Assembly (NCBI GenBank): GCA_964187785.1
Contig: OZ076409.1
Span: 75,456,001 to 75,520,000 of the forward strand
Reading direction: 5' to 3'
Source: Amphiscolops sp. MND2022
Taxonomy: Eukaryota
Length of the DNA stretch: 64,000 nucleotides
Below are positions 1 through 64,000 of the stretch, in pieces. The notes beneath the pieces were generated by a model that was not told the DNA's origin, searched no databases, and saw only the letters and a list, made by a program, of their open reading frames with translations. The position numbers and the translations under genes are program-made. Within the stretch, counting starts at the first letter, position 1; each line of letters opens with the position of its first letter.

Positions 1-949
1 CCCGTTACCCCTTGGGACCGGAAATGACCGTTATGTGGGTAAAATTGCAATTTTCATACTTTTTCAAGTGTATTTAGGTGCGGAAGGAGTGGTAATAGGT
101 GCTTGGACACTATATGAGGTAAGGGAGGACGTGAGGCGAGCATTCGGAAATAACCGTTATGTTGACCCTAAAGTCCCCCTGGTACCGTAAACGACCGGAA
201 ATGGTCAAATTTTGTGTCTATTGGGTACAAATGTTTTGTATTTTGTAGATAAAAGTATCTATTAGGTGTTTCGACGGTTTGCAGTAGTGAACATAGTCAT
301 GAAACCTTGTGGGGGGTAACGGTATATAGCACCGGAAGTCAAACCGTTGGAGACAGGATAGGTTTTTTGGTTTTAAAATGTCTTTCGGCGTAATTTTTTC
401 GACTCTTGTGGACTATTTTTAAAAATTAAAGTTTTTCCATATAGTTTCAGAGACTCCGAAACCTCAACCAACATAACCGTTACCTTATGATAGCCTTTCA
501 AGTTGGCCTGGTGTCAACTTGGAAGCGCTATCCTTCTGAAATCGTTAATCAAGAGTGTTTTTGGGTAGGTATATATTGCATTAGTACCAATTAGAGCTTC
601 ATCAACAGTGTATCAACGACAAAAACTATGCCGTCATGATTCCGTTATCAGAATCATAGTGAGCAAATTGTTGAAAAAAATGGTTTTTTCCATACAAAAT
701 GTGTCCTAAATGCCAGGAAACCTATTTACCTAACAAATGGTATTAATTGGAATGTTTGTAACAGATTTATAAAAGTTCAAATTGAATATTACATTTCATT
801 ATGGAAGCTGAAACGTCATATTTTAGTTTAATTAACGTCAACGCCACACACTTTACATCAACGCACACCGTCTGTGGGCATGCCGAGGCATGCCCTTCGA
901 CGACGTATACCAAATACATACCTAACGACGCCCGTACATCCCGGGCTAG
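1..949 (+). mobile_element. Cassette type B, 5'-partial
   Basis: GATAGCC palindrome 489-532, end hairpin 876-895, ends CCCGGGCTAG. Confidence 0.75.
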
Positions 950-982
950 GTGCGGGGGGGTAACCCCAACAAAATTTTTGGA

Positions 983-1006
983 GGATTCGGGTAGGGTCCT
1001 GAATCC
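983..1006 (+). other. Representative 5' stem-loop with TAGGGT loop
   Basis: GGATTCGGG-TAGGGT-CCTGAATCC; equivalent structure with different stems in types A-F. Confidence 0.8.
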
Positions 1007-2461
1007 GATTTTGACTCTAATAGCTATCGATAGGAAATCTTGCAAAAATTTCGGGATCTCGTGATCTAACCATAGGATTTTAAAGTTGGAGCGGCCCCCA
1101 CCAGATTTTCCGAAAATTAGCGCCCCCCACCGGGTTCCATACCCCGGAAAATTTTTTTCTGGCCACACGGGCGACCGTTAGGGGGTCATTTTAGGGGTAA
1201 AATTCATATTGGGCCACATAACTTTTTTTCTGTTGATTTAAAACTTTGGGACCCTGCTAAAAGTTTCTTGACCGTGTTGCAGTGGCTCCGGAGGTCCAAA
1301 CCAAATTTTTCTATCTTGAAGCTATCTCCAAGTACCCCCCCGCTCAAACCGTTATTTTTCCGGAAACGCAGGTTTTTGACCCGGAAGGAGTCGTCTGAGC
1401 GCGGGGTCGTTAGGTGATGTTTTGGGGACGACCTTGAGACGAAGTGGGGGACATGTAGTTTGCCAACCTCAGTTTACCCCCCGGACGGGAAATGACCGTT
1501 ATATGAGCGGCAAAAATGTCCCCCTCCACGTTTTACCGCTATTTCCGGTGTGAAGGAGTGGGAGTAGCGCGTCGGGTGCCATATATCAAAAGTAGGTTTA
1601 GACAAGGATCTATCGGAAACATGTAGTTTGGGACCCCCTGGACCAACCCGTTAGCAGGAAATGGGGCTTCCGGCCCGTTTTTTTACGGTTAAAAACGGAA
1701 AATGGGCATTGAGGGGTAAATATCTCGTGAACGCGTGGAGCTACGGTGTCCTTCACCACTACAAGGTTTCATACCCATGATATGGTGCCTTCAGGGGGGC
1801 AAACAGATTTCCGCTATCTATCACCGTTACGGACTTGGCCCCCCAGCCTAACCGCTAAGTGACCGGAAATGTCACTTTTTGAGCCCAAAGGGTCGGTCCC
1901 AGCCAGGGAACGTTAGGTAACTTATTGTAGTACTCATTGAGATGAGTTGGGGGACATAGTTTCAGTCACCCCCCGTTACCCCTTGGGACCGGAAATGACC
2001 GTTATGTGAGTAAATTTGCCATTTTTGTCCTATTTGAAGGGCATTTAGATGCGGAAGGAGTGGTAATAGGTGCTTGGACACTATATGAGGTAAGGGAGGA
2101 TATGAGGCGAGCATTCGGAAATAACCGTTATGTTGACCCCAAAGTCCCCCTGGTACCGTAAACGACCGGAAATGGTCAAATTTTGTGGCCATTGGGTACA
2201 AATGTTTGGTATTTTGTAAATAAAAGTATCTATTAGGTGTTTCGACGGTTTGCAGTAGTGAACATAGTCATGAAACCTTGTGGGGGGTAACGGGGTATAT
2301 AGCACCGGAAGTCCAAACCGTTGGACACAGGATAGGTTTTTGGTTTGAAAATGTCTTTCGGCGTACTTTTGTCGACTATTATGGACTATTATTAAATATT
2401 AAAGTTTTTCCATATAGTTTCAGAGACTCCGAAACCTCAACCAACATAACCGTTACCTTAT

Positions 2462-2505
2462 GATAGCCTTTCAAGTTGGCCTGGTGTCAACTTGGAAGGG
2501 CTATC
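2462..2505. repeat. Representative B/C/D/E-type long palindrome
   Basis: GATAGCCTTTCAAGTTGGC...GTCAACTTGGAAGGGCTATC, 44 nt. Confidence 0.9.
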
Positions 2506-2921: not shown

Positions 2922-4207
2922 GTGCCGGGATTTCTATTCGATAAAGTATGTGGCGCGTGTGGGTAGGGTCCCTGGCGCGCTCTTGGGTATGGTGTTCACC
3001 AGCTAGGAAATAGGGGTCGATTTTTCGGGATCTCCTAAACTAGCCACACGATTTGGCTGAAATTTGGCACACGTACTCCCCTCGGCATGGTGAAGATGAT
3101 TTCCTACTGACGTTTTTCCCGCAAAATTTTTTTTGTTGTCCAAAATAACGGTTTTTGGGGTAAAATTTTGAACTTTTTTTAAATTTCATCTTATATCTCG
3201 CCACGGGTTTACGCTAGCGCTTCCAAACCCTGCTAAAGAAAGCTTGCAAACTGTCTCAGGAATGTGGTGTGAAATTTTCAGCTCAATCGGACTCAAACTC
3301 GGGGAGATATAGCGTTTTTCCGGAGCGGGGGGGTTTCATTTTTCTAACGGTCCAGCTTATCTTAGCCATTTTTTCGAAAATGTACTCGCCTAAAGACCTC
3401 CCCTGGCCGGTTTTATTCCCAACAAAACCATTTGGCCCTAAATACGGAGTTTCAGCGTTCCAGCATTCCCGGGCGAAAAGTTGTGGGACTTAGAAAAGTT
3501 CAAAAATTTTCAAAAATTTTTTTTTCCGTTTTCCGCCCTCCCCCCCTAGGGGAAAAGACCCCCCAACCAGTAATTTGAGTGAATTCATGTGGAAAGGCCA
3601 TGTTTAGAGGAGAAAAATACCGTTTAGATCGTCTTTTTATCTTGGCTCAACGTTGACTTATGACGTTTTGAAGGTGATGTTTGGAGGTGTAAAGCACGTG
3701 AATAGTAAACGTTATGAGTATTTATCTGATCTGAAAGCCATTGAGATGCAATATGGTTTGCTCAAAACGTAATTCATGGCAGTTTGGCAATCAATCAACA
3801 CCCTTTGTTGTCGTTTGACATACTTTTTTGTTGTTATAATAAAAAATTTTGTGTTTTTATTCATTTTTTTCTCATCAAATAACTTGAAACAGTTGAGTAC
3901 ATTCCATCCCCCCTTCCGGGGGAGATGAGAATGTACTCGCAAAAAGCACCGAACTACGGCCCTTACCTTCCCGAGCTACGCAGTATAAGGATTACACATT
4001 GGTTCCGACATTTTCATAGAGTTATATCTTGGTAATCTGTCTGGATATGCAGAAAAATCAGCACGTGCTTTTTTATACCAAGTTGCTCACATCGACATTT
4101 ATTTTATATCAACGCCCCCATATTTATCAACGCCCCCCGTCCGTGGGCATGCCGAGGCATGCCCTTCGACGACGTATACCAAGATATGTTCGAGCGCGTT
4201 AGCCTAG
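2922..4207 (+). mobile_element. Cassette type A1 (1286 bp)
   Basis: Starts GTGCCGGGATT, GAGTACATT palindrome 3895-3938, ends GTTAGCCTAG. Confidence 0.75.
3895..3938. repeat. Representative A-type long palindrome
   Basis: GAGTACATTCCATC...GATGAGAATGTACTC, 44 nt, in all complete A units and a variant in G. Confidence 0.9.
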
Positions 4208-4210
4208 GTG
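4109..4210 (+). other. Representative conserved end module plus junction
   Basis: TCAACGCC at 4109 and 4127; GGGCATGCC-GA-GGCATGCCC 4145-4164; TTCGACGACGTAT; CTAG|GTG 4204-4210. Confidence 0.9.
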
Positions 4211-5476
4211 GCCGTGTCTTTTCGACGTGCTTTTGCATCGAGGAGTGGGTAGGGCCCCGCGACGACCTAGAAGAATTGGATGCTCACCGAAACGTGCAGA
4301 ATTCTACGAGATCTCATAGTTTGAGCCATACGATTTTGCTGAAATTTGGCATGTGGCCTGGAATTGGTGAGTAGGTAAAACGTGTAGGAGGTGATTTTTC
4401 CCAAATTCCACTCTGAGACGAGATATGGGCAAATAACGGTCCCAAAAATGGCAAAATTGCACTTTTTTCAACTTTGTCAGCCCATATCTCGTTCCCAGGT
4501 GCCCGGAGCGGGACGCGTTAAGCTGATTATAAACTCTAGGGTGTTGAGGCGGTACGGTGAACTTTGGCCCGTTCCGATCGGACTTGTAGTCTTGGAGAAA
4601 TAACGGTATTTTTGGGAAATTTTTTCTAACGGTCCAGCTTATCTTTGCCATTTTTCGAAAATGTACTCGCCTAAAGGCCTCCCCCTGGCCGAATTTACTC
4701 CCAGCAAAACCATTTGGCCCTAAATACGGAGTTTCAGCGTTCCAGCATTCCCGGGCGAAAAGTTGTGGGACTTGGAAAAATTTCAAAAATTTTCAAAATT
4801 TTTTTTTACGTTTTCCGGGCCCCCAATGAAGGGGAAACGACCCCCCAACCCTTATTTTGAGTGAATGCATGTGGAAAGGCCATGGTTAGAGGAGAAAAAT
4901 GCCGTTTAGATTGTCTTTCTATTTTAACTTGACATTGACTTATGACGTTTTGAATGTGATGTTAGGATGTGTGAGGCATGTGAAAAGTTGATGTTTTGAG
5001 TCTTTATCTCATATGAAAGCAATTGAGATGCACGCTGTCCTGCTCAAAACGTCTTCCGTTGTAGTTTTCCAGTGCACCAGAACCCTTTGGTGTCATTTGA
5101 ACATACTTTTCTTCGGTTTATTAACATTTTTAATGTATTTATTCCAATTTTTATTATCTTATAGCTCAAAACAGTTGAGTACATTTCATCTCCCTTTCGG
5201 GGGAGATGAGAATGTACTCGCTAAAGACCTAGCGCCATGACCAAAATTTGAAGCGCACGTTTTGTATCTTCTTACAGACTTGTTTTTGTATTTTTTCGGA
5301 TTTTTCTAAAAAATAATAATATACTTGAAATACATTACTTGACTTTACTACTACATTCCACCTCCAACGTCAACGCCCCCCTGCTTGCATCAACGCCCAC
5401 CGTCCGTGGGCATGCCGAGGCATGCCCTTCGACGACGTATGCCAAATGCCCAGTGCCACGCAGTCATTTTCGCTAG
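4208..5476 (+). mobile_element. Cassette type A2 (1269 bp)
   Basis: Starts GTGGCCGTGTC, ends CATTTTCGCTAG. Confidence 0.75.
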
Positions 5477-6745
5477 GTGGCCGTGTCTTTTCGACGTGCT
5501 TTTGCATCGAGGAGTGGGTAGGGCCCCGCGACGACCTAGAAGAATTGGATGCTCACCGAAACGTGCAGAATTCTACGAGATCTCATAGTTTGAGCCATAC
5601 GATTTTGCTGAAATTTGGCATGTGGCCTGGAATTGGTGAGTAGGTAAAACGTGTAGGAGGTGATTTTTCCCAAATTCCACTCTGAGACGAGATATGGGCA
5701 AATAACGGTCCCAAAAATGGCAAAATTGCACTTTTTTCAACTTTGTCAGCCCATATCTCGTTCCCAGGTGCCCGGAGCGGGACGCGTTAAGCTGATTATA
5801 AACTCTAGGGTGTTGAGGCGGTACGGTGAACTTTGGCCCGTTCCGATCGGACTTGTAGTCTTGGAGAAATAACGGTATTTTTGGGAAATTTTTTCTAACG
5901 GTCCAGCTTATCTTTGACATTTTTCGAAAATGTACTCGCCTAAAGGCCTCCCCCTGGCCGAATTTACTCCCAGCAAAACCATTTGGCCCTAAATACGGAG
6001 TTTCAGCGTTCCAGCATTCCCGGGCGAAAAGTTGTGGGACTTGGAAAAATTTCAAAAATTTTCAAAATTTTTTTTTACGTTTTCCGGGCCCCCAATGAAG
6101 GGGAAACGACCCCCCAACCCTTATTTTGAGTGAATGCATGTGGAAAGGCCATGGTTAGAGGAGAAAAATGCCGTTTAGATTGTCTTTCTATTTTAACTTG
6201 ACATTGACTTATGACGTTTTGAATGTGATGTTAGGATGTGTGAGGCATGTGAAAAGTTGATGTTTTGAGTCTTTATCTCATATGAAAGCAATTGAGATGC
6301 ACGCTGTCCTGCTCAAAACGTCTTTCGTTGTAGTTTTCCAGTGCACCAGAACCCTTTGGTGTCATTTGAACATACTTTTCTTCGGTTTATTAACATTTTT
6401 AATGTATTTATTCCAATTTTTATTATCTTATAGCTCAAAACAGTTGAGTACATTTCATCTCCCTTTCGGGGGAGATGAGAATGTACTCGCTAAAGACCTA
6501 GCGCCATGACCAAAATTTGAAGCGCACGTTTTGTATCTTCTTACAGACTTGTTTTTGTATTTTTTCGGATTTTTCTAAAAAATAATAATATACTTGAAAT
6601 ACATTACTTGACTTTACTACTACATTCCACCTCCAACGTCAACGCCCCCCTGCTTGCATCAACGCCCACCGTCCGTGGGCATGCCGAGGCATGCCCTTCG
6701 ACGACGTATGCCAAATGCCCAGTGCCACGCAGTCATTTTCGCTAG
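5477..6745 (+). mobile_element. Cassette type A2 (1269 bp)
   Basis: Near-identical to 4208-5476. Confidence 0.75.
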
Positions 6746-8013
6746 GTGGCCGTGTCTTTTCGACGTGCTTTTGCATTGAGGAGTGGGTAGGGCCCCGCGA
6801 CGACCTAGAAGAATTGGATGCTCACCGAAACGTGCAGAATTCTACGAGATCTCATAGTTTGAGCCATACGATTTTTCTGAAATTTGGCATGTGGCCTGGA
6901 ATTGGTGAGTAGGTAAAACGTGTAGGAGGTGATTTTTCCCAAATTCCACTGTGAGACGAGATATGGGCAAATAACGGTCCCAAAAATGGCAAAAATGCAC
7001 TTTTTTCAACTTTGTCAGCCCATATCTCGTTCCCAGGTGCCCGGAGCGGGACGCGTTAAGCTGATTATAAACTCTAGGGTGTTGAGGCTGTACGGGGAAG
7101 TCAGGCCCGTTCCGATCGGACTTGTAGTCTTGGAGAAATAACGGTATTTTTGGGGAACCTTTTCTAACGGTCCAGCTTATCTTTGCCATTTTTTCGAAAA
7201 TGTACTCGCCTAAAGGCCTCCCCCTGGCCGAATTTACTCCCAGCAAAACCATTTGGCCCTAAATACGGAGTTTCAGCGTTCCAGCATTCCCGGGCGAAAA
7301 GTTGTGGGACTTGGAAAATTTTCAAAAATTTTCAAAAATTTTTTTTTCGTTTTCCGGGCCCCCAATGAAGGGGAAACGACCCCCCAACCAGTATTTTGAG
7401 TGAATTCATGTGGAAAGCCCTTGTTTTGACGAGAAAAGTACCGTTTAGAACATCTTTCTATCTTGACTCAACGTTGACTTATGACGTTTTGAATGTGATG
7501 TAAGGATGTAGGAGGCATGTGATAAGTTGATGTTTTGAGTCTTTATCTCATATGAAAGCGGTTGAGATGCAAGCTGTCCTGCTCAAAACGTCTTTCGTTG
7601 TAATTTTCCAGTGCACCAATACCCTTTGGTGTCATATAAACATACTTTTCGTCGATATATTAACAATTTTAATGTATTTATTCCAATTTTTATTATCTTT
7701 TAACTCAAAACAGTTGAGTACATTTCATCTCCCTTTCGGGGGAGATGAGAATGTACTCGCTAAAGACCTAGCGCCATGACCGAAAGTTTGAAACCCACGT
7801 TTTTTATCTTCTTACAGACTTGTTTTTGTATTTTTTCGGAATTTTTTAAAAGTTAATATACTTGAAATACATTACTTGACTTTACTACTACAATCCACCT
7901 CCAACGTCAACGCCCCCTTGCTTGCATCAACGCCCACCGTCCGTGGGCATGCCGAGGCATGCCCTTCGACGACGTATGCCAAATGCCCAGTGCCACGCAG
8001 TCATTATCGCTAG
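6746..8013 (+). mobile_element. Cassette type A2 (1268 bp)
   Basis: Starts GTGGCCGTGTC, ends CATTATCGCTAG. Confidence 0.75.
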
Positions 8014-9300
8014 GTGCCGGGATTTCTATTCGTTCGAGTATGTGGCGCGTGTGGGTAGGGCCCCTGGCGCGCTCTTGTGTTTGGGGGTTTCCTACTTCTA
8101 AATCACGTTCAGATTTCCGGGATCTCGTAAACTATCCATACGATTTGGCTGAAATTTGGCACACGTACCCCCCTCGGCACGGTGAAGATGATTTCCTTCT
8201 GACGTTTTTCCCGCTAAACATTTTTTGTTGACCAAAATAACGGTTTTTGGTGGAAAATTTTTGATTTTTTTTAAATTTTATCCTATATCTCGCCACGGGT
8301 CCACGCTAGCGCTTCCAAACCTTGCTGACGAAACCTCGCAAACTGTCTCAGGAATGCTGTGTGAAATTTTCAGCTCAATCGGACTTAAACTCGGGGAGAT
8401 ATAGCGTTTTTCCGGAGCGGGGGGGTTTCATTTTTCTAACGGTCCAGCTTATCTTTGCCATTTTTTCGAAAATGCACTCGCCTAAAGGCCTCCCCTGGCC
8501 GGTTTTACTCCCAAAAAAACCATTTTGCCCTAAATACGGAGTTTCAGCGTTCTAGCATTCCGGGGCGAAAAGTTGTGGTACTTAGTAAATTTCAAAAATT
8601 TTCAAAATTTTTTTTTTCGTTATTTGGGCCCCCAAAGTGGGGGAAAAGACCCCCCAACCAGTAATTTGAGTGAATTCATGTGGAAAGGCCATGTTTAGCG
8701 GCGAAAAATGCTTTTTAGATCGTCTTTTTATTTTAACCTGTTGTTGACTTATGTTGTTTTGAAGGTGATGTTTGGATGTGTGAAGCATGTGAAAAGGTAA
8801 TTTTTTGTGTCTTTATCTCTTCTAAAAGCCATTGAGATGCAATCTGTTTTGCTCAAAACGTAATTCAATGCAATTTGGCAGTCAATGAACACAATTTGGT
8901 GTCTTTTGTTATATTTTTCTGTTGATATAATAAAAAATTTTGTGTCTTTATTAATTTTTTTTAAATAAAATAACTTGAAACAGTTGAGTACATTCCATCC
9001 CCCCTTCCGGGGGAGATGGAAATGTACTCGCTAAAAGCCGCGAACAAGAGCCCATACCTTCCTGCGCTACGCAGTATAAAGATTGCATGTTGGTTCCGAC
9101 TTTTTGGTAGTGTTATATCTTGGTAATTTGACTGAATATGGAGAAAAATCAGCAAGTGCTCTTTTATAGCAAATTGCTGACAACGACAATTTTTTTATAT
9201 CAACGCCCCCATATTTATCAACGCCCCCCGTCCGTGGGCATGCCGAGGCATGCCCTTCGACGACGTATACCAAAATATGCGTTAGCGCGGTAGCCGCTAG
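8014..9300 (+). mobile_element. Cassette type A1 variant (1287 bp)
   Basis: Starts GTGCCGGGATT, ends GGTAGCCGCTAG. Confidence 0.75.
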
Positions 9301-10585
9301 GTGCCGGGATTTCTATTCGTTCGAGTATGTGGCGCGTGTGGGTAGGGCCCCTGGCGCGCTCTTTTATTTCGGGTACACCTACTCCAAATTCACGATGTGA
9401 TTTCGACGATCTCGTAAACTAGCCACACGATTTGGCTGAAATTTGGCACACGTACCCCCCTCGGCACGGTGAAGATGATTTCCTACTGACGTTTTTCCCG
9501 CTAAACATTTTTTGTTGACCAAAATAACGGTTTTTGGGGTAAAATTTTCAACTTTTTTTAAATTTTATCTTATATCTCGCCACGGGTACACGCTAGCGCT
9601 TCCAAACCTTGCTGACGAAAGTTTGCAAACTGTCTCAGGAATGCTGTGTGAAATTTTCAGCTCAATCGGACTTAAACTCGAGGAGATATAGCGTTTTTCC
9701 GGAGCGGGGGGGTTTCATTTTTCTAACGGTCCAGCTTATCTTTGCCATTTTTTCGAAAATGCACTCGCCTAAAGGCCTCCCCTGGCCGGTTTTATTCCCA
9801 GCAAAACCATTTGGCCCTAAATACGGAGTTTCAGCGTTCCAGCATTCCCGGGCGAAAAGTTGTGGGACTTAGAAAATTTCAAAAATTTTCAAAAATTTTT
9901 TTTCCGTTATTTGGGCCCCCAAAGTGGGGGAAAAGACCCCCCAACCAGTAAAGCAAGTGAATGCATGTGCAAAGCCCTTGTTTAGAGGAGAAAAATGCCG
10001 TTTAGAACGTCTTTTTATCTTGGCTCAACGTTGACTTATGACGTTTTGAAGGTGATGTTTGGAGGTGTAAATCACGTGAATAGTAAACGTTATGAGTATT
10101 TATCTGATCTGAAAGCCATTGAGATGCAATATGGTTTGCTCAAAACGTAATTCATGGCAGTTTGGCAATCAATCAACACCCTTTGTTGTCGTTTGACATA
10201 CTTTTTTGTTGTTATAATAAAAATTTTGTGTATTTGTTCATTTTTTTCTCATCAAATAACTTGAAACAGTTGAGTACATTCCATCCCCCCTTCCGGGGGA
10301 GATGAGAATGTACTCGCAAAAAGCAGCGAATTACGGCCCTTACCTTCCCGAGCTACGCAGTATAAGGATTACATATTGGTTCCGACATTTTCATAGAGTT
10401 AAATCTTGGTAATCTGTCTGGATATGCTGAAAAATCAGCACGTGCCTTTTAATACCAAGTTGCTCACAACGACAATTATTTTATATCAACGCCCCCATAT
10501 TTATCAACGCCCCCCGTCCGTGGGCATGCCGAGGCATGCCCTTCGACGACGTATACCAAGATATACATCGAGCGCGTTAGCCTAG
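9301..10585 (+). mobile_element. Cassette type A1 (1285 bp)
   Basis: Starts GTGCCGGGATT, ends GTTAGCCTAG. Confidence 0.75.
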
Positions 10586-51678: not shown

Positions 51679-54600
51679 GTGGTCAGTGCTGTTGCGTTCA
51701 TTTTTTTCCGGCCGTGGGGGAGGGCCCCTCTGAGGCCGGTCATTTTTCAGGTAACAGCTTTCTTATACAAAAAAGCGGGAAAAAACCTCAGTGCTCAAAT
51801 CCCAACCGTCAGAATGAGCTGAAATTTGGCATGTAGCTAGTGCATTGCAAATGATTAGGATGGGTTATAACGCTATGTTTGGCAAAATTGGTTTTGTTGC
51901 ATTTTTTTTGTCATATAGGGCCAAAAATGGCCTTTTTTGCGTATTTTTTGCTTGACTAGCTAATAACTCGCGTTGGGTTGGTACTAGCGATACGGGTGTG
52001 GGGTATGGAATTGAAAGATTACCAAGTACCTTGCTGATGACGTTATTTGATTTCCGCTCACATCACCCCCCACGCCGGAAATGCCCAATTTGTCACTTCC
52101 GGTCGCAATTTTTGACTTTTTTGGATGGAGTTAAAACCCATTTCCGGTGTGAAGGAGTGGGTTGAGCGCTTCGACCCCAATATACTAAAAGTAGGTTTGG
52201 ACAAAGTCCTATTAGGAAGAAAGTAATGTAAGCCCGTACCTATCACCCCCTCACCGGAAATAGGGGTCACGCCTCCTTTTTCTGTGTTGCAAAAGTGACA
52301 TGTGCACATTTGTCCAACTCCGAAGCCCCGGAGCACCGTGGGACCCTTATACTTTCTAAACACCTATCCCACACGCTACCGGAAGTGACCGGAAGTTTCA
52401 CCGGAAATGACATCCTTGGACCGGAAATGGTCAAAAAAGGACTTTTTCAATAAAAAAAGACACTTTTGGTGCAATTTTTAGGCAAAAAGCATAATTCGTG
52501 ATACGCTTGTTGCAGTTGAAAGGGCCATTGTTCAGCAAGAATGCATACAGCATTACGTAGCACATCAAGTGGTTGATAATTTTTCGTCCATATTATCCAT
52601 AGGACCGGAAATGGCCATTTTTGAATCGGAAATTTCTTCAGCTTGATTTTTAACAAGTTTTTCTACAATATTAGTGTAGGAATTGCTCGTCGGATGCTTT
52701 AGCTCTATTTTAAAACTAGCTGACTGCTTCTTAGAAATGTATTTCAGAAATCCCAACCAATTCGAGATTACCGGAAATGGGAGTAATTGCCTCCTTCATG
52801 ACCTTTGAATGATAAATTGTTAAAATCCGCAATTTATTTTATTCCACAACTGTTGCTCAGGTTATATCTAAGCAATAACATCTGCTTGTTTTGAAGTGCT
52901 GTATTGTGGGAGATACAAATATTGCTTTTTAATAGTAATACATACGTGATATTCGCCGCAATAAAGATTTTTCAAATCAACCATTTTGAAGTCCTACTGG
53001 TGTTCCGCACACCCGAAATAATTTAAGTTTCTAGTTTCGATTTTCAGCCTTCCGCGACTATTGAGTTGAGATGATAGTTTTCACGTTCTCTGCAAAACGG
53101 GCATTTCATTGTGTATGTGACATTTATTGGGTTGTTTCACATGGTAATTCAAAACTAATTGATCATACAATTTAGAACAATTGAAAATTTTCAATTGAAC
53201 AATAAATGTTTTAATAATTTCTCTTTCGTTAAAGATACTCTTTTGTGGCCATTAGAACAGGTTGAATTGGTTGAATAAGTAACCAGTGCGATACATCGTT
53301 TAATACATACCGTTTGACATCGTTTTCTTGCGAACAAAGACAAGCATGATTTGTTGGAAGTTTTTACCATATCGCTTCAAATCGATCGTGACAAACAATG
53401 AATTTCTCGTTTTAATTGCTACTTCGAAAGCAGCCTGAAAACGCAAATCGATCTATTGAGTTATGGAGATGCAACTAAGCATTTCAAGTCTGGGTTTCAA
53501 TTTAATTCTATCACTCCGGACTATTTTTATGTCGCAAAAGTGATAAAGGGTGTTAGCAAGGTTAAAAACATCGAACAATTTTAAAAATAATGCCTTCGGA
53601 AAGGGAAGAAAAATGAGTTTTCCTGTCAAAACAATGATAACCACGTACGAAACATCAAGTATTTGTATTGTTCAATAGTCCAAAACATGAATGAAGTTTT
53701 TAAATATCCAAGAGTTTCCAATCAAGCATGCGTTTCAAATGTCTCACAGGGCAGCATCGTTTTCAAAAAACAGTGCTTTCAATGTGGTTTCATACCAGCA
53801 AAACGAACGCAGGCACAACCACATTCTCAAAATTCTTGCACAACAACCAATTTCTTTGAAAATCCTATTTGATTCCTCAAGGTATATGGTGAGAACCCTG
53901 TTGGGTTCCAAAGTTGATGTGCTGTTTCCTTGGGTTTGCGAGATAAGTTACAACGGAAATCTGAAAGCAGGTCGTCTCAATAAAATACCTGTTGCTCTTT
54001 AAACGATTGGACTTAAGTAGTCGAAATTTATTCTCAGACACTTTCGATCAGAGAATGTTTGAGTCCTAACGTTCGAATCAGGTTGGTTTCAGGTGGCTCG
54101 AAGTGCCAGCTGAACCAACCTTTCAAATAAAGAAAAACCCCACATCTCCCTTCATGCCACGCTACCCCGTATAGCGTTTCAACTTGACAGAAATTGGAAC
54201 GTTTGATTTTGGCGTCGCTTGGGATTGACACACCAGTGTTGATACTAAATTTGGCAAAGAGGAATCGCAGAAATGATTGTTTCTGTTTTTTCCTTTGATT
54301 TAGTGTGTCGAGCGTACAAAGCAGTTTGGGAAACTAACTTGCATTTCCACTGAACGAAAAGCAAAAGTAGTAACATTGAAAACTTCCGGAATAAATTTAA
54401 TCAGGTTTCCGTATTTGTGAGATCAGCTGCCACTCAGTTATCAGTTACATCTTTCAAATTTTTAAGAACAACTAATCAAACTTTGCTCGACTCTCTTGGA
54501 TAAGGCAACAATAGTTTACTAATCTGTACTCGTGGAAAAAAGTCAACTGCCGTGTCAAAAACAATCTGTATGTAACTTTTCTCTCGTGCAAAGTTATTTT

Positions 54601-54749
54601 TTACCCCCTCTGACTCAACTATAGCATGTACGTAATGAAACCAATAACACCTTCAACTGTTAATCAACGCCCACCGTCCGTAGGCATGCCGAGGCATGCC
54701 TTTCGACGACGCGCGCCGGAAACAATCTATCGGCGCCACCCGCTTCTGG
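51679..54749 (+). mobile_element. Cassette type F, single copy with unique cargo (3071 bp)
   Basis: Starts GTGGTCAG, 5' stem-loop 51708-51739, B-like block near 52141, end hairpin 54682-54701, ends CTGG. Confidence 0.7.
52790..54620. other. Non-repetitive AT-rich cargo inside cassette F, possibly decayed coding sequence
   Basis: No similarity seen to other units; lacks the ACCGGAA/poly-C/poly-G texture of the array; only short interrupted frames; boundaries approximate. Confidence 0.55.
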
Positions 54750-56151
54750 GTGGTCGGGTATTTTTTTTACTCGTATATGACGTTTGCGAGGCTTTGGGGA
54801 GGGCCCCGTGCCGAGCCTGTTCCGATAATCGCCACATGTAGAAATCTGGCACTAAAATGCGAGATCTCAAAAAGTAGCCGTTAGAAATTTCTGAAATTTT
54901 GCATGTGGCTCAGAATTAATGAGTAATGAAAAAGTGTAGGAGTGAAGGTTGCTGAAAAAATGGTCCTTGTTGCACTTTTTGCGCAATTTTTGTCTGATTG
55001 TTGCGTTTTTTATGTCATTTTCGACTTTTCAAGCGAAAAACTCATGGATGCTTCGTTCCTAGCGCATCAAGTGTGGAGCACGAAAAGTTGCAGCATCTCC
55101 AAGTGCGTATGCTGAGAAAATTTGGTTGCCGTCGGGTTACCCCCCACAGACCTAGAGGGGTACTTCCGGTTATTTTTGACCCCCTAAATTAGGTAAACTG
55201 CTAATTTTTGTAATGAAGCCGTAGATTTAGCGTGTCCGCACCCTGCTGAAGTTTTGTTAAACATTTTGAGAGAGACCCAATGACATGTGTTCAGTTCACC
55301 CCCCATCACCCCCTTGACCGGAAATGAACGTTTTTGTGCACTTTCAGACCGGATGTCTCCTTTTTCACCGGTAAGGAGGCCTTGTACGACCAACTAGCAG
55401 GATATCAAAATTGAAGTATAACCCAGGGTCAACTTAATGACCACGTGTTGTCCAGTCATGGGTTTCACTATGACCGGAAATGGGCTCAAAACCCCACTTT
55501 TAGTAGTTTTTTATCAATTTGAATAGTGTTTGGTTCACATTCAGGTGGCGTAAGTCACTTGCACCAGTGTGAGTATTAACTGCATGTTCCCTGCGTAGAC
55601 GTAACTGACACTGTCAGATACCGGAAGTAACCCCATGTGACCGGAAGTGGTCAATTTTGACCGGAAATGGTCCAAAAAGTAGCGTAAAAGCAGTTTTTCA
55701 CTACTTTTTAGGGACAATTTTTTACTTTTTTTCAATCTGAATGCCTCCTTTATACTACCAAAGCTAACATCGTTGCCTGTTTTGCTAAAGATTTGGCAAT
55801 TGATTACCTTTATCAACCCCGATAGCCTTCCAAGTTGACCTTGGGTCAATCTTGAAGGCTATCTATACTTAAAACGAAAAATCGAGATAAGTTGTTTTCT
55901 CCATTACGTTGATAATTTTTCCTTGATGTCAAAGTGTTAAGCAAAGACTTTTAAGCAAATTAATGATCTGAATCTTGTTCAGAGGTCTCACCCTGAGGAA
56001 GATTATTTGAGATTGAAGTAAACTGAGAATGAGGTTAGTATTTGTCAACATCAGAGAATCTTATCAACGCCCACCGTCTGTGGGCATGCCGAGGCATGCC
56101 CTTCGACGACGTATGCCAAATAGCGCCACAGGGCGCCCACACTTTTGCTAG
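54750..56151 (+). mobile_element. Cassette type E (1402 bp)
   Basis: Starts GTGGTCGGGTATTT; diverged relative of 40038-41455 with the same tail. Confidence 0.75.
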
Positions 56152-57440
56152 GTGCCGGGATTTCTATTCGATAAAGTATGTGGCGCGTGTGGGTAGGGTC
56201 CCTGGCGCGCTCTTGGGTATGGTGTTCACCAGCTAGGAAATAGGGGTCGATTTTTCGGGATCTCCTAAACTAGCCACACGATTTGGCTGAAATTTGGCAC
56301 ACGTACTCCCCTCGGCAAGGTGAAGATGATTCCCTACTAGCGTTTTGCTCGCAAAATTTTTTTTGTTGTCCAAAATAACGGTTTTTGGTGGAAAATTTTG
56401 AACTTTTTTTAAATTTCATCTTATATCTCACCACGGGTTTACGCTAGCGCTTCAAAACCCTGCTAAAGAAAGCTTGCAAACTGTCTCAGGAATGCGGTGT
56501 GAAATTTTCAGCTCAATCGGACTTAAACTCAGGGAGATATAGCGTTTTTCCGGAGCGGGGGGGTTTCATTTTTCTAACGGTCCAGCTTATCTTAGCCATT
56601 TTTTCGAAAATGTACTCGCCTAAAGACCTCCCCTGGCCGGTTTTATTCCCAGCAAAACCATTTGGCCCTAAATACGGAGTTTCAGCGTTCCAGCATTCCC
56701 GGGCGAAAAGTTGTGGGACTTAGAAAATTTCAAAAATTTTCAAAAAATTTTTTTTTCGGTTTTCCGCCCTCCCCCCCGAGGGGAAAAGACCCCCCAACCA
56801 GTAATTTGAGTGAATTCATGTGGAAAGGCCATGTTTAGAGGAGAAAAATCCCGTTTAAATCATCTTTTTATCTTTATTCAACGTTGACTTATGACGTTTT
56901 GAAGGTGATGTTTGGAGGTGTGAAGCACGTGAAAAGTAAACGTTATGAGTATTTATCTGATCTGAAAGCCATTGAGATGCAACCTGTTTTGCTCAAAACG
57001 TAATTCATATCCGTTTGGTAGTCAATCAACACCCTTTGTTGTCATTTGACATCTTTTTTTTGTTGATATAAGAAAAAATTTTGTGTATTTATTCATTTTT
57101 TTCTCATCAAATAACTTGAAACAGTTGAGTACATTCCATCCCCCCTTCACGGGGGAGATGAGAATGTACTCGCAAAAAGCCCCAAACTACGGCCCTTACC
57201 TTCCCGAGCTACGCAGTATAAGGATTACATATTGGTTCCGACATTTTCATAGAGTTATATCTTGGTAATCTGTCTGGATATGCAGAAAAACCAGCACGTG
57301 CTTTTTTATACCAAGTTGCTCACAACGACAATTATTTTATATCAACGCCCCCATATTTATCAACGCTCCCCGTCCGTGGGCATGCCGAGGCATGCCCTTC
57401 GACGACGTATACCAAGATATGCGTTAACGCGTTAGCCTAG
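56152..57440 (+). mobile_element. Cassette type A1 (1289 bp)
   Basis: Starts GTGCCGGGATT, ends GTTAGCCTAG. Confidence 0.75.
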
Positions 57441-59631
57441 GTGGAGGTTATTTTATAATAATTAAAGTGTTTTTTTCCGGAGTTTGTGGCTTTGGAAAAA
57501 ACAAAAGGCGAGAAATTGGGCACTCCGGGCTGAACCGTATACACTCAAAATTCGCCCAATATTTATACGATCTCGAAACCCAGCCGTACGATTTGGCTGA
57601 AAATTTGCATGCGGCTAAAAAATCAGATTCTAAGAACTATTTCCTGCTGACATTTTTTTGAAATTTTTGTGTACGTTTCCCCCCCGCCCCCTAAAGGGGT
57701 CAATTTTCCCCAATTTTGCACTTATGAGTCAAATTCTCAAAACTGGTGGATCTGAGCGTATTCCCAGCGGAGACAACTTTTAACGAGCGCTCTTCAGTAG
57801 ACCTTTTTGACTTTTTACTTTGGTGGTAGGTTCACCCCCCAAGGAGGAAATGGCTTTTTTGTGACTTCCGGTCGAGACTTTTTTCACCCAAAAAATAGAA
57901 ATAAGCCAGTTTTGAGCAGGAAGGAGTGGATTTGAAGTGTCTGTACCCTTCTAAAAATTTGTTGGGCTTGTAGCGATATATCTCATACCAAGTCTGGTTT
58001 TCACCCCCAAACCCCCCTTGGGACCAAAATTCACCCAAACTTTTTTACCTCTGTTTGTAGTTTTTTTTGCAAATTGTCGTCATTTCCATGGGTAAAGAGT
58101 TGAATTAGGGGCTCCTAATAGGGTACCAATGTTCAAGTACACTTGCAGTGCAACTGAGTGACCCTTGTTGGGCCTCTCGTGTGCTCGGCAAGGACCGGAA
58201 GTGGTGTAAACCCCCCTTTTTTGACGTTTGTTGACCTTGAGTCTCGCGCTTAGATGACGTTTATGTCGCGCAAGTCCTACAAACCAGTATTCGGATGACA
58301 CGCTAGCCAACTAGAGAGCAATACGGGAAACCATAACATACCGGAAGTAACCCTCCGTGACCGGAAGTTGTCATTTTTGGCCGGAAATGGTCCAAAACCT
58401 AGCGTAAAAGCAGTTTTTCTTTGCTTTTAAAGTCAACTTATTACAATTTTCAATCTGCGCGAGCTTGTCCTAAGGTTCGTTCTGTTGCCAGTGCACACTT
58501 TAACAAATATACATCTGTAAAATTTTCGCTATAATATCGTCGGAGAGAGAAATAACGGGTTTATGGGACTTTTTTCAAAAACGATAGTCTGTATCTGTCT
58601 TTTTTACCCAACGTTTTTCAACAGTAGAACCACAGGGGTTAGTCTCTGCCCAAATATATGCCTAACAAAACCAGTTCACCCATTGGTTGCAATTTGAGCG
58701 TTCTAGCTTTGCCAGGTCACAAGTTATGAGACTTGAAAAGTTTCCAAAATTTTTTCCGAAAATTTGTTTCTAAACTTCATGTCTCCCAAAGTTAAGAATC
58801 TTCCGCACAACTAGGATTGCAAGTGAATGCATGTGGTAGAACCTTTAAATGGAGAGAAAATATCCGTATAGAACGTCTCTTTATCGTATTTTGACGTCGA
58901 GAGATGTTGCTTTGAATGCCAGCTTGATAAGACGTCGAGTAGTAACAGTGTGTAAATGGAACATATGTCTCAACAAATACTCATCGGAATACATGCGATG
59001 AAACCCAATTACCCTCAATTTCAGTTGCCTAGTACAACAACGTCTTCCAAGGAACTTTTAATCTTTTTGAGAAGTGTTGAAGTCATCATTAAATTCAGTT
59101 AGCAAGAAACAATTGAGTACATTCTCATCTCTCCCCATCGGGTGAGATGAGAATGTTCTTGCTAAAAGCCAGGTACTACTGCCCAATTTTGTTTTATTGC
59201 GACGCATTCGGTGCTTTAGCACATAGATACTTTTATTCCGTCTCACGTTTTGTATACACTCTGATTTGTTGTTATAAATTTCTCGTCATTACTTTACATA
59301 AACTAACTACAATCGTGAACTTCAACGTCATAGCCAAATTCATTTAGACGCCCACCTTTCCGTGGGTATGCCGAGGTATGCCTTTCGAAGACGTATGTCA
59401 AAACGCAAATGCGATAAAAAAAGGTGCTGATATTCGGAAACAGTGACAAACAAATTGACTATTTGATATTTGGTAGGTTTTTATATGGAACTTACACATC
59501 ACTGACATTTCAAAACATTCCAGCTGACGGCCACATACAAACATCAACGCCCACCGTCCGTGGGCATGCCGAGGCATGCCCTTCGACGACGTATGGCAAA
59601 TACCTTCATCGACGCCTCCACATTCCCCTAG
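57441..59631 (+). mobile_element. Cassette type G, single chimeric copy with doubled end module (2191 bp)
   Basis: Starts GTGGAGG; D/E-like 5' half, A3-like 3' half; degenerate end hairpin 59364-59383 and intact one 59562-59581; ends CCCCTAG. Confidence 0.7.
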
Positions 59632-60914
59632 GTGGCCGGAAATTTTTTTTTTCAGCAAAATCTTTGCCATTGGGGGAGGGGCCCCGGATGGCCAGTAGTA
59701 CGGCATAGCTCCCTACGGAATCCAGGCGGAAAAAACGTGATTTTGGAAACTAGCCGTCAGAATTTGCTCAAATTTTGCATACGGCTTCCTATAACAATCC
59801 TAAGAACTAATCCCTACTGGTATTTTGCCCAAAAAACGCAAAAAGTTGGTCAAAATCTTAGTTTTTTGGTCAAAAAATGGCGTTTTTTCGAAAAAAATTT
59901 TTTTCAGAGACAATTACTCGTAACTGGTTCACCCAGCGCAAAAACGCCTAGCTGATTTATTGTTGGGCACTTCATGAGAAGTGCGTATACAAACTTTCGT
60001 CCAAATCGGATGAAAGTTGATTGAGAAATAACAGAAAATTTGAGGCATTTTTTTGGAAATTTTTGAAATCCCAGTCTATCTCTGCCGTTTTTTGCCCAGA
60101 TTTTTTTCCAGACACTCTCCTAAAGACCTCCCCTGGCCGGTTTACCTCCCAGCAAAACCATTTGGCCCTAAATACGGAGTTTCAGCGTTCTAGCATTCCC
60201 GGGCGAAAAGTTGTGGGACTTAGAAAAAATTTTTGGAAACGCAAAATGTGTAAAGTCAACTTCAGGCCTCCCAAAGTCAAGAAACTTCCACACAACTAGT
60301 ATTGCAAGTGAATGCATGTAGAAAGTACTCGAATAGACAAGGAAAATGGGCTATAGAACGACTCTGTAGCTTAACTTGACGTTGACTTATGACATTTTGA
60401 GTGTGAGCGTCCTATAGGATTTTAATGTCAAAAATGAGATTTTGTAAGTCATGAGTCATCAAAAACTCATCGGAATACGTTCAATCATCCCCATAGCTGT
60501 TCAATCACCGTTGCTTAGTAGAGCAACGCCATTATATGTCTTTGGACCCATTTTAAAAATTTTCCTTACCGTCTTATTCGTCCGATATCACGAAACAGTT
60601 GAGTACATTCCATCTTCCCCCTTGTGGGGGAGATGAGAATGTACTCGCCAAAGACCTGATACAATGACCCATATTGGTTTTTATTTGACTTTTCTCACAA
60701 TATTGCACACGGATAGCTGTGTTTGGTAAAAGTTTTCCTTTGCACCATGTCTCCAGAAGCAAAACCACTTCTTTAGCTTACTACTTCTACTCAAACATCA
60801 CTAACGTCAACGCCACATACTGGCATCAACGCCCACCGTCTGTGGGCATGCCGAGGCATGCCCTTCGACGACGTATGCCAAATAGCGCCGCAGGGCGCCC
60901 CCAATTTCCGCTAG
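59632..60914 (+). mobile_element. Cassette type A3 variant (1283 bp)
   Basis: Near-identical to 37367-38649. Confidence 0.75.
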
Positions 60915-62202
60915 GTGCCGGGATTTTCTATTCGTTCGAGGAAGTGGCGCGTGTGGGTAGGGCCCCTGGCGCGCTCCTGTGTTTTCGGTTTTCCTACTCC
61001 AAATTCACACCCCAGTTATCTCCGATCTCGTAAACTAGCCATACGATTTGGCTGAAATTTGGCACACGTACCCCCCTCGGCACGGTGAAGATGATTCCCT
61101 ACTGACGTTTTGCCCGCTAAACATTTTTTGTTGACCAAAATAACGGTTTTTGGTGGAAAATTTTTGATTTTTTTTAAATTTCATCTTATATCTCGCCACG
61201 GGTTTACGCTAGCGCTTCAAAACCTTGCTGACGAAAGTTTGCAAACTGTCTCAGGAAAACGGTGTGAAATTTTCAGCTCAATCGGACTCAAACTCGGGGA
61301 GATATAGCGTTTTTCCGGAGCGGGGGGGTTTCATTTTTCTAACGGTCCAGCTTATCTTTGCCATTTTTTCGAAAATGCACTCGCCTAAAGGCCTCCCCTG
61401 GCCGGTTTTATTCCCAGCAAAACCATTTGGCCCTAAATACGGAGTTTCAGCGTTCCAGCATTCCCGGGCGAAAAGTTGTGGGACTTAGAAAAGTTCAAAA
61501 ATTTTCGAAAAATTTTTTTCCGTTATTTAGGCCCCCAAAGTGGGGGAAAAGACCCCCCAACCAGTAAAGCAAGTGAATGCATGTGCAAAGCCCTTGTTTA
61601 GAGGAGAAAAATGCCGTTTAGAACGTCTTTTTATCTTGGCTCAACGTTGACTTATGACGTTTTGAAGGTGATGATTGGAGGTGTAAAGCACGTGAATAGT
61701 AAACGTTATGAGTATACATCTGATCTGAAAGCCATTGAGATGCAATATGGTTTGCTCAAAACGTAATTCATGGCAGTTTGGCAATCAATCAACACCCTTT
61801 GTTGTCGTTTGACATACTTTTTTGTTGTTATAATAAAAAATTTTGTGTATTTATTCCTTTTTTTCACATCAAATAACTTGAAACAGTTGAGTACATTCCA
61901 TCCCCCCCTTCCGGGGGAGATGAGAATGTACTCGCAAAAAGCACCGAACTACGGCCCTTACCTTCCTGAGCTACGCAGTATAAAGATTGCATATTGGTTC
62001 CGACATTTTCATAGAGTTAAATCTTGGTAATCTGTCTGGATATGCAGAAAAACCAGTACGTGCTTTTTTATACCAAGTTGCTTACAACGACAATTATTTT
62101 ATATCAACGCCCCCATATTTATCAACGCCCCCCGTCCGTGGGCATGCCGAGGCATGCCCTTCGACGACGTATACCAAAATATGTTCGAGCGCGTTAGCCT
62201 AG
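60915..62202 (+). mobile_element. Cassette type A1 (1288 bp)
   Basis: Starts GTGCCGGGATT, ends GTTAGCCTAG. Confidence 0.75.
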
Positions 62203-63490
62203 GTGCCGGGACTTCTATTCGATAAAGTATGTGGCGCGCCTTGGGTAGGGTCCCTTGCGCGCTCTTGGGTATGGTGTTCACCAGCTAGGAAACAGGGGTC
62301 GATTTTTCGGGATCTCCTAAACTAGCCACACGATTTGGCTGAAATTTGGCACACGTACCCCCCTCGGCACGGTGAAGATGATTTCCTACTGACGTTTTTC
62401 CCGCAAAATTTTTTTTGTTGTCCAAAATAACGGTTTTTGGGGTAAAATTTCGAATTTTTTTTAAATTTTATCTTATATCTCGCCACGGGTTTACGCTAGC
62501 GCTTCAAAACCCTGCTAAAGAAAGCTCGCAAACTGTCTCAGGAATGCGGTGTGAAATTTTCAGCTCAATCGGACTCAAACTCAGGGAGATATAGCGTTTT
62601 TCCGGAGCGGGGGGGTTTCATTTTTCTAACGGTCCAGCTTATCTTAGCCATTTTTTCGAAAATGTACTCGCCTAAAGACCTCCCCTGGCCGGTTTTATTC
62701 CCAGCAAAACCATTTGGCCCTAAATACGGAGTTTCAGCGTTCCAGCATTCCCGGGCGAAAAGTTGTGGGACTTAGAAAATTTCAAAAATTTTCAAAATTT
62801 TTTTTTTCCGTTTTCCGCCCTCCCCCCCTAGGGGAAAAGACCCCCCAACCAGTAATTTGAGTGATTTCATGTGGAAAGGCCATGTTTAGAGGAGAAAAAA
62901 GCCGTTTAGAACGTCTTTTTATCTTGGCTCAACGTTGACTTATGACGTTTTGAAGGTGATGTTTGGAGGTGTAAAGCACGTGAATAGTAAACGTTATGAG
63001 TATTTATCTGATCTGAAAGCCATTGAGATGCAACCTGTTTTGCTCAAAACGTAATTCATTGCAGTTTGGCAGTCAATCATCACCCTTTGTTGTCGTTTGA
63101 CATACTTTTTTGTTGTTATAATAAAAAATTTTGTGTATTAATTCATTTTTTTCTCATCAAATAACTTGAAACAGTTGAGTACATTCCATCCCCCCTTCAC
63201 GGGGGAGATGAGAATGTACTCGCAAAAAGCCCCGAACTACGGCCCTTACCTTCCTGAGCTACGCAGTATAAAGATTGCATATTGGTTCCGACATTTTGAT
63301 AGAGTTATATCTTGGTAATCTGTCTGGGTATGCAGAAAAACCAGCACGTGCTTTTTTATACCAAGTTGCTCACAACGACATTTATTTTATATCAACGCCC
63401 CCATATTTATCAACGCCCCCCGTCCGTGGGCATGCCGAGGCATGCCCTTCGACGACGTATACCAAAATATGTTCGAGCGCGTTAGCCTAG
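62203..63490 (+). mobile_element. Cassette type A1 (1288 bp)
   Basis: Starts GTGCCGGGACT, ends GTTAGCCTAG. Confidence 0.75.
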
Positions 63491-64000
63491 GTGCCGGGAT
63501 TTCCATTCGATAAGGAATTCTGCGCGTGTGGGTAGGGCCCCTGGCGCGCTCCTGTGTTTTCGGTTTTCCTACTCCTAAATAGGCCCCCTGAATTCCGGGA
63601 TCTCGTAAACTAGCCATACGATTTGGCTGAAATTTGGCACACGTACCCCCCTCGGCACGGTGAAGATGATTCCCTACTGACGTTTTGCCCGCTAAACATT
63701 TTTTGTTGACCAAAATAACGGTTTTTGGTGGAAAATTTTTGATTTTTTTTAAATTTCATCTTATATCTCGCCACGGGTTTACGCTAGCGCTTCAAAACCT
63801 TGCTGACGAAAGTTTGCAAACTGTCTCAGGAATGCGGTGTGAAATTTTCAGCTCAATCGGACATAAACTCGAGGAGATATCGCGTTTTTCCGGAGCGGGG
63901 GGGTTTCATTTTTCTAACGGTCCAGCTTATCTTTGCCATTTTTTCGAAAATGCACTCGCCTAAAGGCCTCCCCTGGCCGGTTTTACTCCCAAAAAAACCA
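63491..64000 (+). mobile_element. Cassette type A1, 3'-partial
   Basis: Starts GTGCCGGGATTTCC; truncated by the window end. Confidence 0.75.

Follow-up and report, generated by a model that had tools for sequence, protein, structure and literature searches.

How a stretch of eukaryotic DNA comes to be filled with units of many families, all facing the same way and all joined at one short site, is the question raised by a 64-kb segment (hereafter, the window) at C1:75,456,001-75,520,000 (contig OZ076409.1) of the 1.07-Gb assembly of Amphiscolops sp. MND2022. The whole window (positions 1-64000, + strand) is a slice of a head-to-tail array of about 6 Mb, made of non-autonomous Helitron-like units whose autonomous partners lie elsewhere in the array. 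The elements have the form 5′-GTG ... CTRG-3′ and carry a conserved hairpin module at the 5′ end. The evidence presented below makes it likely that a distinct clade of Helitron-like transposons, of which the units are non-autonomous members, built the array by rolling-circle transposition directed at its own copies, with the junctions between resident units apparently serving as preferred targets.

The window is a head-to-tail array of units of several families

The + strand of the window contains 45 matches to CT[AG]GGTG (the − strand has four, unrelated ones), and cutting at CTRG|GTG rendered 46 units, of which 44 are complete. When the window was compared with itself by BLAST, each of the 2,221 matches fell on the same strand; the units are co-oriented throughout. 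Clustering recovered the order given in a preliminary description made from the window alone: a partial B and a B (1-2921), A1 (2922-4207), three A2 (4208-8013; the first two 99.8% identical), three A1 (8014-11873), two B (11874-15815), C (15816-17196), B (17197-19190), A1 and two A2 (19191-23030), eight A1, several with reassorted 5′ and 3′ halves (23031-33300), A3, D, D, A3, D, E, A3 (33301-42732), four A2 and three A1 (42733-51678), F, which ends in CTGG (51679-54749), E and A1 (54750-57440), G (57441-59631), and A3 followed by three A1, the final one partial (59632-64000). Unit lengths were 1,268-1,298 bp for A, 1,970-1,994 bp for B, 1,381 bp for C, 1,388-1,390 bp for D, 1,402-1,418 bp for E, 3,071 bp for F and 2,191 bp for G.

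Units of unrelated types had only 1-6% of their length in common, all of it terminal, in agreement with the shared end modules originally described. A 3′ hairpin was present 62-77 nt from the unit end in all 44 complete units (for example GGGCATGC-CGAG-GCATGCCC, at 876-895), and the motif GGG(T/G)AGGGNCC lay 37-46 nt past the unit start in 43 of them. This motif forms the apex of a 5′ hairpin with a family-specific, co-varying stem (for example at 983-1006), a candidate origin to which the transposase would bind. The junction at 946-952 (CTAG/GTG, the end of one unit and the start of the next) exemplifies the proposed nick, join and target site. An open reading frame (ORF) scan of the 64 kb yielded nothing longer than 162 aa, in keeping with the claim that no enzyme is encoded in the window. 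Tandem Repeats Finder returned only 10 short arrays, the unit length exceeding its period limit.

The preliminary description also held that the unit type changes only at this one junction. The 45 CTRG|GTG junctions bear this out; the unit bodies do not entirely, since those of type A are mosaic and G is composite. The 5′ and 3′ halves were reassorted among 32 related A-type units, all four combinations being present and 4 of 36 window pairs being incompatible, and G contains a decayed internal 3′ end (near 59,360) followed by a second 3′ end. The A1, A2 and A3 units (8014-33300 and the other A units) have a conserved internal block at which the halves reassort.

The arrays extend over megabases and occur on several chromosomes

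A genome-wide scan for these ends, as suggested in the preliminary description, rendered 4,293 copies of the exact 3′ hairpin (control, 0) and 4,528 matches to the junction plus the 5′ motif (control, 1). The C1 array that includes the window spans at least 70.5-76.49 Mb. When 3-kb samples were inspected, array DNA was present in all 11 taken at 70.5-76.05 Mb (68-100% covered) and in none of the nine taken outside. This mega-array runs mainly on the + strand but is inverted in part at 76.05 Mb. Past C1:76.005 Mb it is interrupted by non-array DNA, at least 8 kb long, that includes a long interspersed nuclear element (LINE) with endonuclease and reverse transcriptase (L103:1762-5108). C1 has smaller arrays at 3.5, 24, 29.5 and 38 Mb, and others lie on C2, C3, C6 and C10; the same structure recurs in at least eight separate arrays on several chromosomes.

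Orientation switches occur inside arrays at C1:23.978 Mb (L009) and C1:76.05 Mb (L126); the former falls at a gap of 200 N and may have been introduced by scaffolding. Additional clusters of transposases and junctions, belonging to other lineages (2,464-2,747 aa), lie near chromosome ends at C2:102.4-103.9 Mb and C3:2.4-3.9 Mb. Of nine pattern matches in viral contigs, none was confirmed.

Judged from the assembly alone, it is hardly probable that arrays of this kind are an assembly artefact. Units of one family differ by 0-25%, the arrays are distributed over several chromosomes, some are bounded by unique host flanks for which matching empty sites exist, and intact 7-kb ORFs under selection are embedded in them.

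Long units of the same arrays encode a Helitron-type transposase

A search with Helitron_like_N gave 17 weak matches at C1 71.6-76.5 Mb, none of them on the − strand and most of them in ORFs of more than 2,200 aa; at least 10 ORFs of over 2,300 aa are present in the C1 mega-array. Six loci with long units were taken, the 24-Mb array supplying one and this mega-array the other five. Their units (12.0-14.4 kb) all had the same junction bounds, with a GTG start, the 5′ motif and a CTRG end, and each had a single ORF of 2,350-2,545 aa on the strand of the unit. Pfam detected Helitron_like_N and PIF1 above the cut-off in all three long-unit ORFs scanned, and GIY-YIG below the cut-off in two (transposase P0001 combines the first two with a sub-threshold GIY-YIG). 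The motifs EFQ..HxH, YxxxY and Walker A are present, and the protein is an HUH-Y2 Rep joined to a Pif1 helicase (RepHel), in most cases followed by an SLX1-like GIY-YIG domain at the C terminus. A model of the Rep region (pLDDT, the predicted local distance difference test score, 79.5) had the Helitron transposase Helraiser (7LCC) as its sole significant structural match (Foldseek E 3e-8; Z 16.7, root-mean-square deviation 3.7, 327 residues aligned). Differences among the ORFs were 0.46-0.56 at third codon positions versus 0.10-0.18 at second positions, so the transposase ORFs are under purifying selection.

A direct connection between short and long units is provided by F, the first 906 bp of which are 96.6% identical, and the last 86 bp 96.5% identical, to the ends of a 14,083-bp autonomous unit (C1:71601601-71615683) that encodes a 2,545-aa RepHel-GIY-YIG protein. 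In addition, the 5′ ends of four of the six autonomous units were identical to those of short units over 70 of 70 positions. Identity among the array transposases g24, g743 and g716 is only about 30%, and more lineages occur at C2, C3, C1:3.6 Mb and C5; junctions lie next to the copies at C2:102.77 and C3, and little beyond the ORF is present in the other three stretches. Copies of canonical Helitron-like elements (HLEs) of groups HLE1 (C8:51.74 Mb) and HLE2 (C1:34.71 Mb) were considered as partners and rejected, as they do not have these termini. Several autonomous units have a second ORF of 335-389 aa 3′ of the transposase (L029:6525-7670, +; L021:5223-6389, −; L026:8203-9207, +), which matched no Pfam family; its atlas neighbours are OB-fold proteins that bind single-stranded DNA (0.88-0.90, low recognition), a lead only.

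The preliminary description had proposed a trans-acting enzyme, either an HUH/rolling-circle nuclease or a tyrosine recombinase, and recognised no named system. The inspection of longer units that it recommended bears on both points: all six carry a RepHel ORF, an HUH enzyme is thus encoded in the same arrays, and this enzyme is of the Helitron type. An integron-like process, in which a tyrosine or serine recombinase would exchange cassettes at a CTAG core, might be suggested by the single precise site, the co-orientation and the short common core flanking an insertion. It is nonetheless very improbable: no recombinase family was matched in the autonomous-unit ORFs scanned (the search covered these ORFs and not the whole genome), and a tetramer-based target logic is known for HUH elements such as IS91.

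Ends of the elements and their target site

The tetramer preceding GTG was tabulated for 224 junctions collected by a search that demanded CTNG: it was CTAG in 207, CTGG in 15 and CTTG in two. The end tetramer is specific to the family, F keeping CTGG whatever its upstream neighbour. The sole module common to all families lies at the 5′ end and consists of two hairpins, the second with the apex GGG(T/G)AGGGNCC; native pairing of the 5′ hairpin arms was better than swapped pairing in 32 of 37 end types. The 3′ hairpin, GGCATGCC, is restricted to some lineages and is missing from several array families, and a compensated G:C to A:T variant of it occurs in F and others.

Solitary copies allowed the target to be read. 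One lies in a long terminal repeat (LTR) retrotransposon, with CTTG|GTG on its left and |GT on its right; five of seven other copies of the retrotransposon were readable at the anchor, and all five were empty, with no duplication. For a second solitary copy, in a repeat resembling a short interspersed nuclear element (SINE), every copy of the repeat read at seven other loci was likewise empty and without duplication. The tetramer is CTTG at the left boundary of copy L090 but CTAG at its right boundary and hence is no target-site duplication (TSD); a 4-bp CTAG TSD is ruled out by this copy, by the family-specific end tetramers and by the empty sites. After 36 terminal CTAGs lacking a following G (a set that includes a few non-ends and two duplicate pairs), the next bases were AT in 24, TT in nine and others in three, and CTNG preceded 13 of 17 intact starts at host boundaries. 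Together with the empty sites, these bases define a host target, CTNG^DT, that mimics the head-to-tail junction CTRG^GT. The hexamer alone does not account for targeting, since 138 same-strand internal CTNGDT hexamers occur in the 73 units of the window plus 20 kb per side, yet lengths are uniform within families.

Among 23 family representatives, CTNGDT was depleted inside units (50 versus 103 expected on the unit strand, 74 versus 104 on the other), a pattern that selection against termination or insertion within the unit may explain, as may a general avoidance of CTAG. The SINE-type repeat is abundant and tRNA-like, bears CTAGCTAG and was examined at L189-L196, one copy containing the element; ARAGORN found no tRNA at four such loci. 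Dispersed copies with a precise 3′ CTAG end and most of the 5′ part gone were seen at L062, L063, L064, L065, L073, L075, L086 and L087. A suspected 3′ transduction at L059/L078 turned out to be a segmental duplication.

Arrays of a retroelement type (HeT-A/TART-like or Penelope-like, made by target-primed reverse transcription) would also be co-oriented, and 5′-truncated dispersed copies and a GIY-YIG domain would suit them. The probability of such an origin is very slight, given that the scanned autonomous ORFs contain no reverse transcriptase, that neither poly(A) nor a TSD accompanies the copies, and that the 5′ ends in the arrays are precise.

Unit order points to the movement of single units

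Order statistics were computed for the same 73 units. There were 45 non-adjacent pairs of units at least 97% identical, and in none of them was a neighbour matched (mean after shuffling, 1.5), which indicates that there are no higher-order blocks. The A3 units at 37367 and 59632, for instance, are 99.8% identical and have unrelated neighbours. By the same test, the block duplication of a classical satellite was absent from all 45 distant pairs, and the excess of like neighbours was modest. Units thus change position mostly one at a time, as the preliminary description had supposed.

A complete 8-unit array between host flanks contains two non-adjacent units that are 100% identical and have different neighbours, and both this array and a 6-unit array on C10 mix at least four types. 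In the C10 array a 16-nt spacer separates a CTAG^AT site from a CTGG^ site, which is best read as a second insertion that landed beside a resident element, a near miss. In one subfamily a known element end immediately preceded 36 of the 40 copies listed, which are spread over arrays on several chromosomes (the search patterns miss about a quarter of its copies). The order statistics and the empty sites also fit the earlier proposal that units are inserted at the end of a resident unit, targeting itself being the interpretation placed on them.

A model for array growth, and what weighs against it

In the proposed mechanism, the transposase would bind the 5′ hairpin and nick at CTRG^GTG, the helicase would peel off one strand up to the next CTRG, and the circle so closed would be reinserted, steps that are modelled on what is known of Helraiser and IS91. 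The transposase would also recognise the 5′ hairpin of a resident element, each junction thereby acting as origin, terminator and preferred target: a junction (the tetramer plus the 5′ hairpin downstream) would have the same structure as the joint of the circle, so that every junction could be used. Since each insertion would regenerate the target, any family with these ends could be added to one and the same co-oriented array as it grows. New arrays would be seeded by the rare use of CTNG^DT sites in host DNA, dimers formed now and then would leave short runs of identical units, and mosaics would come from recombination between related bodies. The SLX1-like GIY-YIG domain might, more speculatively, trim branched intermediates.

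Several observations weigh against this model. The case is built on assembly sequence, and circles, de novo insertions and expression lie outside it; the concentration of copies in arrays could also partly reflect selection against solitary insertions. Four of the 17 host boundaries at 5′ ends did not have CTNG (one was GTCC, one belonged to a rearranged copy and two to old copies), and many dispersed copies, ascertained through a 3′ pattern, are 5′-truncated. As to the guiding end, the 5′-most unit of the 8-unit array seems older (95.0% versus 98.8%), while the C10 array weakly suggests the opposite. The link to the autonomous units is uneven: F was the only type for which a direct partner was identified among the six long units compared, the A types having 600-800 bp of 5′ sequence in common with autonomous units at 70-86% identity, and B, C, D and E only short modules; the 3′ ends of five of the six autonomous units matched short units at just 37-52 of 70 positions. 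Sequence support for GIY-YIG is weak in each single protein, Pfam not detecting it in the g743 ORF and the best PDB match of the C-terminal domain being SLX1 with E 0.038.

Unit order is not wholly free of local effects either. Adjacent near-identical pairs numbered five versus 1.4 expected, and same-family neighbours 30 of 72 versus 16.8, so local amplification or duplication also contributes; in the A-type mosaics exchange took place away from the junction, and G is composite. The neighbour runs and the mosaics would be expected if the same transposons did not target junctions at all and instead produced rolling-circle concatemers, the units of which homologous recombination or gene conversion later mixed through the terminal modules they share, with solitary copies purged by selection; tandem Helitron arrays have indeed been ascribed to rolling-circle concatemers (in the available parts of PMC5876387 and PMC5148889). 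We consider this explanation unlikely. Duplicated blocks of several units were seen in none of the 45 pairs. Families with unrelated, hairpin-less 3′ ends join just as precisely, leaving some 7 common bases for recombination, arrays as small as the 8- and 6-unit ones are already mixed, and the C10 spacer also speaks against it.

Place among Helitron-like elements

The transposase family comprised 325 clusters at E<=1e-30, and a simple motif search found a C-terminal GIY-YIG-like motif in 57 of 96 long homologues. In the nearest atlas cluster, PIF1 was present in 98% and GIY-YIG in 88%; the second-nearest includes a few diatom records. By profile, the transposase was closer to the HLE2 of this genome (E 2.6e-37) than to its HLE1 (E 6.7e-11). 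In trees (six candidate rows without a motif were skipped, and nine near-duplicates dropped for a later tree), the clade formed one side of a branch with 100% support, against three to five HLE1 and four HLE2 references; the trees are unrooted, their references all come from this genome, and a long-branch warning applies.

The system was compared with HLE1 and HLE2 as defined in the available parts of PMC11417382 and PMC3627910. It agrees with the superfamily in having an HUH Rep with two tyrosines fused to Pif1 and, in two empty-site comparisons, no TSD; termini in common with autonomous copies were found for F at both ends and for the others at the 5′ end, and only partly at the 3′ end. Of the HLE1 features, the 3′ CTRR with a hairpin is represented by CTAG/CTGG, the hairpin lying farther from the end or missing in some families. 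The 5′-TC start is replaced by GTG at all 45 window junctions and A^T insertion by CTNG^DT, and the transposase falls on a separate branch from the three to five HLE1 references of this genome. The T^T insertion and 5′ T of HLE2/Helentron are absent. DUF6570 and AP endonuclease had no match in the family proteins, DUF6570 being matched in the genome's own HLE2 control, and asymmetric terminal inverted repeats were not evident in the end listings, no dedicated search having been made. The helicase separates the system from Replitrons, which have a Y1 Rep without one, and no tyrosine recombinase such as defines integrons was among the scanned ORFs. This is, then, a Helitron-like system and not an integron, and it fits neither the HLE1 nor the HLE2 termini and targets; the unclassified HLEs of HELIANO may include this clade.

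In 3 of 25 metagenome loci (L151, L155 and L168) the 5′ hairpin apex was found on a stem upstream of the transposase ORF, where 0.32 apex matches were expected in 101 kb; these transposases have 24-33% protein identity, and most of the other loci were examined without the 5′ end. We propose only tentatively, and with somewhat less than even confidence, that these elements are a separate, widespread eukaryotic rolling-circle group (RepHel-GIY-YIG) in which the junction is origin, terminator and preferred target at once, and in which lineages about 30% identical share a terminal code and jointly build megabase arrays as a safe haven. One metagenome relative (33% protein identity) also has, at L151:80-233, about 150 bp of subterminal 5′ DNA some 75% like the units of this genome. 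Another has a presence/absence polymorphism of about 760-800 bp 3′ of its ORF (L166:12973-13733 and L168:15326-16121 versus L167), apparently a different small element. Some relatives have an N-terminal OTU domain (P0039, P0065, P0084). Adjoining matches to an HLE2-type Rep at C1:7350624 and 7354000, and at C13:44257676 and 44265565, suggest tandem copies of ordinary HLE2.

Comparison with known systems and implications

The papers cited in this section were available in part, and what is said of them applies to those parts. Like HLE1 and Helraiser (7LCC), the present elements have a Rep(HUH,Y2)-Pif1 fusion with the same fold, a CTRR-like 3′ end, a subterminal hairpin in many families and no TSD, and head-to-tail circles and tandem arrays have been reported for HLE1 (PMC11417382, PMC5876387). 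They differ from HLE1 in the 5′ GTG in place of TC, the CTNG^DT target in place of A^T, a hairpin that lies 62-77 nt from the end where it is present, the conserved 5′ hairpin, the C-terminal GIY-YIG and the more distant profile. With HLE2/Helitron2/Helentron they share the closer transposase profile, a 5′ hairpin, a large ORF and, in some relatives, OTU; GIY-YIG is described in one Sphagnum HLE2 family (HelenSM92) and in unclassified HLE clusters, and proto-Helentron ends in CTAG (PMC11417382). Unlike HLE2, they show no T^T insertion, 5′ T, or DUF6570 or AP endonuclease match, and GIY-YIG is widespread among them.

The telomere-targeting Helitrons of Paramecium, a third HLE clade whose insertion is directed by sequence and strictly oriented, resemble the present case in that non-autonomous copies build a chromosomal compartment (PMC13085455); their target is the host telomeric repeat, their ends are CCAA, and end-to-end mixed arrays are not described in that source. 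Tandem Helitron arrays are known in plants and bats. Those of plant centromeres (Xiong 2016; Wang 2022) are, according to a citing passage, truncated tandem insertions, and Helitron-rich centromeric or subtelomeric regions are reported in PMC13404089 and PMC11934779. These plant, Meloidogyne and Hydractinia cases also involve long Helitron-derived arrays, sometimes with interspersed autonomous copies, but Helitrons lie between satellite arrays in PMC13404089, a single-family repeat is involved in PMC11934779, and none is described as a base-precise succession of full-length units from many families. Replitrons, also eukaryotic HUH transposons, have short direct repeats at their ends and differ in their Y1 Rep, the absence of a helicase and their reported TSDs (PMC10288648). 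A literature search to which Repbase, Dfam, Xiong 2016 and most subscription papers were external yielded no account of base-precise mixed arrays of Helitrons and none of the present clade, nor was a matching system present in the available parts of PMC10288648, PMC6431247, PMC13565253, PMC13286980 and the centromere atlas preprint.

IS91 is alike in its HUH-Y2 rolling-circle mechanism, the absence of a TSD, circular intermediates and an origin-side target tetranucleotide that resembles the terminal cleavage tetramer (targets CTTG, GTTC, GTCC and CTCG, the terminus being cleaved at CTCG); it is bacterial and small, has no helicase, and communal arrays are not described for it in that source (PMC13181058). 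The clade reported here would thus work like a Helitron with an IS91-type target logic. In CTX phage/IMEX arrays at dif and in integron cassette arrays, integration regenerates the target and mixed co-oriented arrays result; these systems are bacterial and use tyrosine recombinases, and the resemblance is by analogy only.

If the proposed reading is correct, repeated transposition to a specific site, not unequal crossover, can give rise to a satellite-like domain of several megabases. The choice of target by Helitrons usually involves a dinucleotide; the biology of eukaryotic Helitrons would gain a strategy of targeting other elements and an IS91-like tetramer rule. The intact transposases and defined ends make Helitron target selection testable in assays of the Helraiser type, and ordered stacking of DNA cassettes could be achieved with an enzyme that restores its own landing site. 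Annotation gains a handle in the conserved 5′ hairpin, as scanners based on TC/CTRR or TT would mis-bound this clade. On the more tentative reading of a widespread group with a common terminal code, the arrays would represent a eukaryotic HUH counterpart of the integrative systems that regenerate their target, and a transposase-driven origin of complex satellite DNA.

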